A DNA stretch of 49,162 bases, taken from NCBI GenBank assembly GCA_964016885.1, contig CAXHJY010000068.1, positions 1 through 49,162 on the forward strand. The letters are read 5' to 3'. The translations under genes and the position numbers were made by a program. This DNA comes from Eledone cirrhosa. Lineage: Eukaryota. The notes beneath the pieces were generated by a model. It was given only the letters and a program-made list of their open reading frames with translations. It was not told the DNA's origin and made no database searches. Shown piece after piece: positions 1-1,669 of the stretch (positions are counted from its first letter, which is position 1; each line of letters begins with the position of its first letter).

Positions 1-1669
1 ATATGTATAGGTATATATATATGTATATATATATATGTATATGTATATATATATGTATATATATGTATATATATATGTATGTATATATATGTATAGGTAT
101 ATATATATGTATATATATATATGTATATGTATATATATATGTATATATATGTATATATATATGTATGTATATATATATATATGTATATATATGTATGTAT
201 ATATATGTATGTATATATATATATATGTATATATATGTATGTATATATATATGTATGTATATATATATGTATGTATATATATATATATGTATATATATGT
301 ATGTATATATATATATGTATATATATGTATGTATATATATGTATGTATATATATATATATATATGTATATATATGTATGTATATATATATATGTATATAT
401 ATGTATGTATATATATGTATGTATATATATATATATATGTATATATATGTATATATATATATATATGTATGTATATATATATATATATGTATATATATGT
501 ATATATATATATATATGTATATATATGTATATATATATGTATATATATGTATATATATATATATATGTATATATATGTATATATATATGTATATATATGT
601 ATATATATATATATATGTATATATATATATATATATATATATATGTATGTATATATATATATGTATGTATGTATGTATATATATATATATATATATATGT
701 ATGTATATATATATATATATATATATATATGTATATATATATATATATATATATATATATATATATATACATTATGAAGAGAGAAGAAACATTTAGATAT
801 AATTAGTAATAAAATGTATCATACCTAAACTGTTCCTAAATTCCTCGACTACGTAGTTTCGTGGCATAAACAAAAACAATATATCAAAGATATAGAGTCC
901 TTGCGAGGTCTGCCGACTTATCAAGAGGATACCTCATTTTACTAGTCTCAAGAACGCGTCTATATATATATATATGTGTATATATATATATATATATATA
1001 TATATATATATATGTGTATATATATATATATATATATATATATATGTGTATATATATATATATATATATATATATGTGTGTATATATATATATATATATA
1101 TATATGTGTATATATATATATATATATATGTGTATATATATATATATATATATATATATATGTGTATATATATATATATATATATATGTGTATATATATA
1201 TATATATATATATATATGTGTATATATATATATATATATATATATATATGTGTATATATATATATATATATATATATATATGTGTATATATATATATATA
1301 TATATGTATATATATGTATATATATGTATATATATGTATATATATGTATATATATGTATATATATATATATATATGTGTATATATATATATATATATATA
1401 TATACGTATATATATATATATATATATATGTATATATATATATATATATATATATGTATATATGTATATATGTATATATATATATATATATATGTATATA
1501 TATATATATATATATATATATATATGTATATATATATATATATATATGTGTATATATATATATGTATATATATATATATATATATGTGTATATATATATA
1601 TATATATATATATGTATATATATATATATGTATATATATATATATATATGTGTATATATATATATATAT
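1..1669. repeat. (TA)n/(TATG)n arrays 1-770 and 961-1669, separated by a 190-bp unique island
   Basis: Direct inspection. Confidence 0.95.
842..929 (-). ncRNA. Type-I hammerhead-ribozyme-like motif (variant core, long stem II)
   Basis: UCCUC-UUGAUAA-GUCGGCA...UGCCAC-GAA-ACUACGUAGU-C-GAGGA. Confidence 0.55.

Follow-up and report, generated by a model that had tools for sequence, protein, structure and literature searches.

The 190-nt island at positions 771–960 of the window, by which we mean the entire 49,162-nt stretch of Eledone cirrhosa DNA analyzed here, is likely a piece of a 591-nt unit that represents a young non-LTR retrozyme, probably inserted into a (TA)n tract by a Penelope-like element. 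What is directly observed is the hammerhead motif in the island, its setting between (TA)n flanks, and a longer unit, whose head-to-tail join is seen in one sequencing run. We propose a model in which two ribozymes within a multi-unit transcript would pair through their 10-nt palindromes to generate a double hammerhead, whose cleavage after C847 would free a monomer of 591 nt. This monomer could be ligated into a circle and, by analogy with other retrozymes (PMC7229834), a Penelope-like protein would reverse-transcribe the RNA and insert it at AT-rich DNA. A single ribozyme would be held in a closed fold by the sequence around it. The island, its flanks, and the elements of the motif are as follows.

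600–770, no strand: left (TA)n flank, the presumed target, with a pure run of 38 nt at 732
961–1100, no strand: right (TA)n flank, with a pure run of 35 nt at 979
771–960, minus strand: insert in (TA)n, 190 nt of the 591-nt head-to-tail unit, with strong self-pairing on the minus strand
932–960, minus strand: predicted upstream masking segment, in which 960–954 pairs with 854–847, 947–941 with 921–915, and 935–932 with 928–925
929–842, minus strand: type I hammerhead motif with all elements present (stem I, core, stem II, GAA, palindrome, GUC)
925–929, minus strand: stem I, 5' strand, five of five Watson-Crick pairs with 846–842
918–924, minus strand: core U3-U4-G5-A6-U7-A8-A9 (UUGAUAA, the U3-A8 variant), read from the sequence and the same in runs X1, X2, and X15
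911–917, minus strand: stem II, 5' strand, with G10.1 at 917, C915 bulged, and six pairs with 866–861
867–910, minus strand: loop II, 44 nt, holding a predicted 14-pair hairpin at 904–870 (pair probabilities 0.96–1.0)
861–866, minus strand: stem II, 3' strand, with C11.1 at 861
858–860, minus strand: core G12-A13-A14, read from the sequence
848–857, minus strand: 10-nt palindrome, A15.1 to U16.1, from sequence and fold energies
846–847, minus strand: C17 (847) and the predicted cut between 847 and 846, from the sequence
842–846, minus strand: stem I, 3' strand, paired with 929–925
776–846, minus strand: predicted long downstream hairpin, whose base captures the 3' strand of stem I in the lowest-energy fold

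The initial annotation described a minus-strand motif with a 5-bp stem I, a UUGAUAA core, a palindrome directly after GAA, and a GUC triplet, and our reading of the sequence shows this description to be exact. The chain ends of the motif meet in stem I through five Watson-Crick pairs, which defines a type I topology. C17 and the 847/846 cut are placed by established hammerhead numbering. Within the core at 924–918, the 3-8 pair is a Watson-Crick U3-A8 pair and every other position matches the consensus; the two departures from consensus thus compensate for each other and keep the 3-8 pair, as had been claimed. G10.1-C11.1 (G917-C861), A15.1-U16.1 (A857-U848), and H17 (C847) are all as a hammerhead requires. 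Stem I has no defined loop 1 and extends past a bulge by weak pairs only. The nucleotide between A9 and G10.1 that is typical of Penelope minimal hammerheads is absent, A918 being followed directly by G917. By its core and stems, the segment 929–842 is a type I hammerhead for which self-cleavage is predicted.

It is also conceivable, though we consider it extremely unlikely, that the motif has decayed or resembles a hammerhead by chance and that its whole family lacks a working ribozyme. Among 20,000 dinucleotide shuffles of the island, scored with a descriptor in which any Watson-Crick pair was allowed at positions 3 and 8, a relaxed hammerhead appeared 29 times, one with a palindromic stem III three times, and one as good as that observed not at all; both core departures, moreover, preserve the 3-8 pair in an otherwise consensus core. 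What a look-alike would explain is that the active fold is not the one of lowest energy, that most animal retrozyme dimers tested in one study remained uncleaved (one of nine was cleaved; preprint 10.64898/2026.07.22.740005), and that Rfam returned no match. The whole window yielded zero Rfam matches at the gathering score, and no hammerhead family was among the five matches obtained at E ≤ 10 for positions 760–970. This absence weighs little against the motif, because motifs with a canonical core elsewhere in the window were missed as well. One match, to mir-268 (25.9 bits, cut-off 47), reflects the downstream hairpin only and was rejected.

Evidence for the longer unit comes from sequencing runs, whose organism labels are coded. 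The search listed 24 runs, 20 with part of the stretch and 15 with at least half of its 17 words. When X2, a possible source, is set aside, 14 rows from 11 studies and 11 organism labels contain at least half of the words. The five rows with under half of the words were not used, and contig depths were not taken as copy numbers. We compared the contigs or reads of four of the 24 runs (X1, X2, X15, and X21) with the island. In X1, a single 621-nt contig carries 771–890 at its start and 861–960 at its end with 0 differences; 401 letters separate 960 from 771, so that the unit closes on itself at 591 nt, with 30 nt of overlap. The contigs of X15, which belongs to another study and another organism label, extend 122 nt past 960 and 309 nt before 771. 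These extensions (122 + 309) equal 401 + 30, the overlap expected of neighboring contigs if k = 31, a value deduced from the overlap in X1. A 577-nt contig of X2 contains the island at 157–346, again with 0 differences, between flanks that total 387 nt, 14 short of the spacer. The window locus has pure TA runs on both sides (38 and 35 nt), from which we infer that the flanks of the X2 contig are not those of this locus. BLASTN of the island against the 49,162-nt window revealed no second copy.

Across three organism labels, 0 differences were found over 190 nt (X1 and X2) and over 128 nt (main contigs of X15). Together with the presence of all 17 words in four organism labels, this identity points to a very young element. 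The core is identical in all three runs that cover U3/A8, so the copy comparison proposed in the initial annotation excludes random core bases there. The same annotation took the compensated core as a sign of selection rather than decay. The identical core in three of three runs reflects recent descent without covariation. Selection on the element family is plausible given that both core changes preserve the 3-8 pair. Nothing points to selection on the window copy, since identical copies indicate descent and not selection.

A further X15 contig is diverged and weak. It has a depth of 2, covers 771–868 with 11 substitutions and two gaps, and stops short of the core. Six of the 11 substitutions could be placed: three are unpaired, one keeps a pair, and two break a pair unless an unlisted partner changed as well. 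The two gaps stand opposite each other across the downstream hairpin. In the ribozyme sense, the main pieces of X15 start at 833, which is 13 nt past the predicted cut, pass 771, cross the spacer to 960, and end at 896. This order is that expected of a cut linear monomer, a weak hint that comes from one junction. None of 12.8 million raw DNA reads of X21 matches the island, a sample of about 1% of the run that is no test of absence; if that organism has a genome of 2.5–5 Gb, zero reads would argue against at least 10 copies. There is no RNA run among the listed holders of the stretch, which has no bearing on expression. The GC content is 0.30 over 756–982, and the longest stop-free frame in the island, with 190 of the 591 nt seen, is 46 amino acids. 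Sequence patterns had 0 matches in prokaryote genomes and viral contigs. An 18-nt pattern of the 3' half matched 15 metagenome loci and a 17-nt pattern one viral locus; none of the 16 has the upstream core or extended homology, and we attribute them to chance.

The closed 591-nt contig fits a tandem array and a circle alike. A very unlikely reading makes the unit a viroid-like circle, infectious or extrachromosomal, that passes from host to host, with the island as an endogenized remnant. Such an agent would account for the closed contig of X1, the strong self-pairing, the 0 differences across three organism labels where compared, and a patchy distribution among samples of one organism label (a share of 0.53 in X15 and 0.00 in X23 and X24, which is no proof of absence). 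Two holders, X2 and X13, are labeled as probable DNA runs, however, and the 190 nt seen contain no hammerhead on the opposite strand. In addition, one X15 contig departs from the unit at 833 into unrelated sequence, resembling a genomic junction.

Two larger features of the window bear on the origin and the setting of the island.

43712–45508, plus strand: 5'-truncated Penelope-type element in (TA)n, with a frameshifted RT end, a three-cysteine linker, and a GIY-YIG domain (PF01541, E 8.4e-05)
26457–38173, minus strand: ionotropic glutamate receptor-like gene of about 11 exons, which run from 38173 to 26457, with a GTAAGT donor at 26456

The first of these establishes that a Penelope-like element is present in the genome of the island. 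Its GIY-YIG domain is followed by a long tail with an internal repeat, and no hammerhead was found in the fragment by the descriptor used. In an unlikely reading, an autonomous Penelope-like element is the origin: the island would be a piece of its terminal repeat (pLTR), and the 591-nt loop would be its end in partial tandem and not a separate non-autonomous family. The motif matches the build of Penelope pLTR hammerheads: it has a long helix II, a helix I of the 4–5 bp class, and a palindromic helix III region. Excerpts of PMC4209133 describe pLTR hammerheads of this architecture that are mostly lone, truncated motifs. Partial tandems are typical of Penelope-like elements (PMC8557442), and the window itself holds a fragment of a Penelope-type ORF. 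Against this origin, no piece leads out of the X1 contig, whose loop is complete at 591 nt, and the X15 contigs agree with its spacer, whereas an ORF between the repeats should produce a loop of kilobases. The island also shares no sequence with the Penelope fragment at 43712–45508 by BLASTN within the window, and no RT or GIY-YIG ORF adjoins it. We therefore file the 591-nt unit as a probable retrozyme rather than as a pLTR, and it is likely a non-autonomous partner of Penelope-like elements.

We next consider how the retrozyme might be held inactive and released. The minus strand of the island folds at -49.0 kcal/mol (z -3.89, 0 of 200 shuffles), compared with -29.2 for the plus strand. Within a monomer, the palindrome at 848–857 forms 3 bp and a tetraloop at +1.5 kcal/mol; between two copies, a 10-bp duplex is predicted at -12.9. 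When two copies of 929–842 were folded without constraint, the result was the double hammerhead, at -57.3 as against -43.6 for two monomers. In the trimmed monomer 929–842, the active fold is only 2.2 kcal/mol away, so that some monomer activity is possible. The segment 932–960 changes this balance: the active monomer fold costs 10.0 kcal/mol with it and 3.1 without it. The cost of 10.0 kcal/mol in the full island arises because 960–954 covers the cut site, 947–941 the core, and 935–932 stem I, together with the downstream hairpin. A dimer of 960–771 has an active fold of -94.5 and a free fold of -103.9, and with the flanks present neither monomer nor dimer favors the active fold. Because the flanks outcompete the double hammerhead at equilibrium, cleavage would need co-transcriptional folding or a protein. 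As modeled, the flank energetics tell against a simple dimer switch, and they match the low activity (PMC4209133) and the protein dependence reported for Penelope hammerheads, one of which needed protein and was dispensable for insertion in vitro (PMC11167929).

On the minus strand, 944–935 is complementary to 816–807, in the loop of the downstream hairpin, over 10 nt with one G-U pair. A pseudoknot between these segments could free the core, and the match may be due to chance in AT-rich sequence. The diverged X15 contig has one change that disrupts a pair here unless the partner changed too.

The copy in the window spans the predicted cut site, so its template would have been uncut or re-ligated RNA, which fits the report, in excerpts of PMC11167929, that uncut RNA is the main in vitro substrate of a Penelope-like element. 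Lone and truncated, the window copy probably has no activity and does not benefit the host.

The interval between the island and the receptor gene is rich in repeats: two near-identical CR1-like LINE pieces, the ends of other LINEs, and four more hammerhead-like motifs. Palindrome-type hammerhead hits number five in 22,461 complex bases, compared with 0.01 per shuffle (300 shuffles). A minimal hammerhead with a canonical CUGAUGA core, a 4-bp helix II, and a 4-nt palindrome is located at 25985–26026 on the minus strand; the receptor is encoded on this strand too, and its last exon lies 430 nt upstream. An inverted repeat at 19877–20259 has arms of 189 nt that are 99% complementary and lie 5 nt apart. 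Each arm contains a hammerhead-like motif with the core CUGAAGA (at 19983 on the minus strand and at 20153 on the plus strand), a long helix II, an 8-bp stem I, and an 8-nt AU palindrome; such an opposite-strand pair is the pattern described for Penelope ends. Another hammerhead-like motif, at 26151–26200 on the plus strand, begins directly at a (TA)n run and is related in its 3' part to the motif at 20153. The two CR1-like LINE copies (13324–15859 and 1672–2320, plus strand) are young and lie in (TA)n. The longer one has an open frame of 808 amino acids with RVT_1, and the pair would be a good control repeat for sharing across species. Two other LINE-like elements, represented by 3' ends that contain open frames, also lie in (TA)n, at 4518–5740 and 19195–19731 on the minus strand. 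Elsewhere in the window are a direct repeat of 227 nt and 98% identity (29860–30086 and 30856–31082) whose start coincides with the upstream boundary of a receptor exon, and a local duplication (41003–41536 and 42748–43278) that forms an inverted pair around 42191–42770. The window contains no tRNA, and a bacterial promoter scan, which is not relevant to animal DNA, stayed at chance level.

One exon of the receptor gene is 81% identical to an ionotropic glutamate receptor-like protein of Octopus bimaculoides and 67% to a protein of Argonauta hians (two hits among 76 candidates), which points to an octopod host. Both homologues end before the last membrane helix. A search of the 26 kb up to the left end of the window revealed no exon for that helix; the nine hydrophobic stretches left of 26455 all fall within LINE fragments. 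This leaves two possibilities for the island, an intron longer than 26 kb or a place outside the receptor gene. The initial annotation called the motif sense to the receptor pre-mRNA. It does lie on the same strand as the exons, but 25.5 kb beyond the last exon found, and the shared strand is all that speaks for the hinted role in the pre-mRNA. That the host keeps the ribozyme to cut or tune a glutamate receptor-like pre-mRNA is, in our judgment, a very remote prospect, even granting that the GTAAGT donor at 26456, with no further exon leftward, may open a long intron across the island. The distance to the nearest exon speaks against such a role, as do the predicted masking of the lone copy by 10 kcal/mol and the two further sense hammerhead-like motifs in the same interval, as litter of repeats would give. 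Moreover, the island is identical to copies with other flanks and is hence a young insert.

Both the U3-A8 core, a rare variant, and a dimer-forming palindrome are already known. According to excerpts of Perreault et al. 2011 (PMC3088659), several natural hammerheads have U3-A8 in place of C3-G8 and are active in vitro, as found in an earlier study cited there. The core swap is the same as ours; in those excerpts, it is not tied to such a repeat unit. Our only literature match for hammerheads combined with U3-A8 was PMC4209133, in the passages available. These passages report about 1,300 U3-A8 hammerheads in Schistosoma, found through a Penelope-like element, and one Schistosoma row of the supplementary alignment has the identical UUGAUAA core. 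They describe Penelope-type hammerheads with a long helix II, a short helix I, a palindromic helix III, and U3-A8. Cercyon of Schistosoma mansoni resembles the island in its type I topology, its U3-A8 pair, its helix I of 4–5 bp, and its palindrome after GAA, and likewise occurs mostly as lone motifs with predicted dimer activity. The island differs from Cercyon in its 10-nt palindrome, which is able to form a 3-bp helix III, in its 44-nt loop II with a hairpin of its own, and in lacking both the extra nucleotide between A9 and G10.1 and a linked RT ORF. Palindromic variants of helix III also occur in flies, rotifers, and shrimp. For the atypical Penelope hammerheads of Drosophila virilis, rotifers, shrimp, and mosquito, U3-A8 is not described in these passages, and helix I of D. 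virilis has 2 bp compared with 5 in the island. Dimeric Penelope hammerheads reported by Lunse, Weinberg and Breaker in 2016, as summarized in part of a review (PMC6765202), may include closer relatives.

The unit as a whole resembles the metazoan non-LTR retrozymes treated in excerpts of PMC7229834 and of the preprint 10.64898/2026.07.22.740005. It is arranged head to tail, has, in the part seen, one type I hammerhead, a GC content below 50%, and high self-pairing, occurs as dispersed partial copies, and shares its genome with Penelope-like elements. Its length of 591 nt exceeds the 170–400 nt of PMC7229834 and falls within the 51–972 bp of the preprint. Its ribozyme is of the Penelope-variant type, whereas the retrozymes have the canonical type with loop 1 and loop 2. 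According to portions of the preprint (Li, Clavereau and Pollet 2026), retrozymes derive from Penelope terminal repeats. The (TA)n setting of the island has a parallel in the targeting of microsatellite and AT-rich DNA by Penelope-like elements (excerpts of PMC8557442 and PMC11167929). Penelope is abundant in coleoids, in a report (PMC8967140) whose available passages do not mention ribozymes. The literature listings and passages surveyed contained no cephalopod retrozyme.

Since the variant core and the palindrome are published, the motif alone is ordinary. Its value lies in its context: a likely cephalopod retrozyme that joins a retrozyme-like unit to a Penelope-type variant ribozyme. This combination agrees with a proposed origin of animal retrozymes from Penelope-like elements. 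Being young and near-identical across samples, the element offers an intact unit for probing dimer-gated cleavage of a natural U3-A8 core. It is tempting to speculate, doubtful as the idea is, that the 591-nt unit is a circular-RNA retrozyme now spreading horizontally among octopods or their neighbors, apparently at low and patchy copy number, with its 10-nt palindrome and masking flanks restricting cleavage to pairs of copies. Close relatives, loose labels, or cross-contamination could explain the sharing. If the labels represent distinct species and an ordinary young repeat is shared less widely, the distribution would indicate recent horizontal spread of a ribozyme retroelement. Such spread, if true, would connect the retrozymes of genomes with infectious, viroid-like circles of animals.
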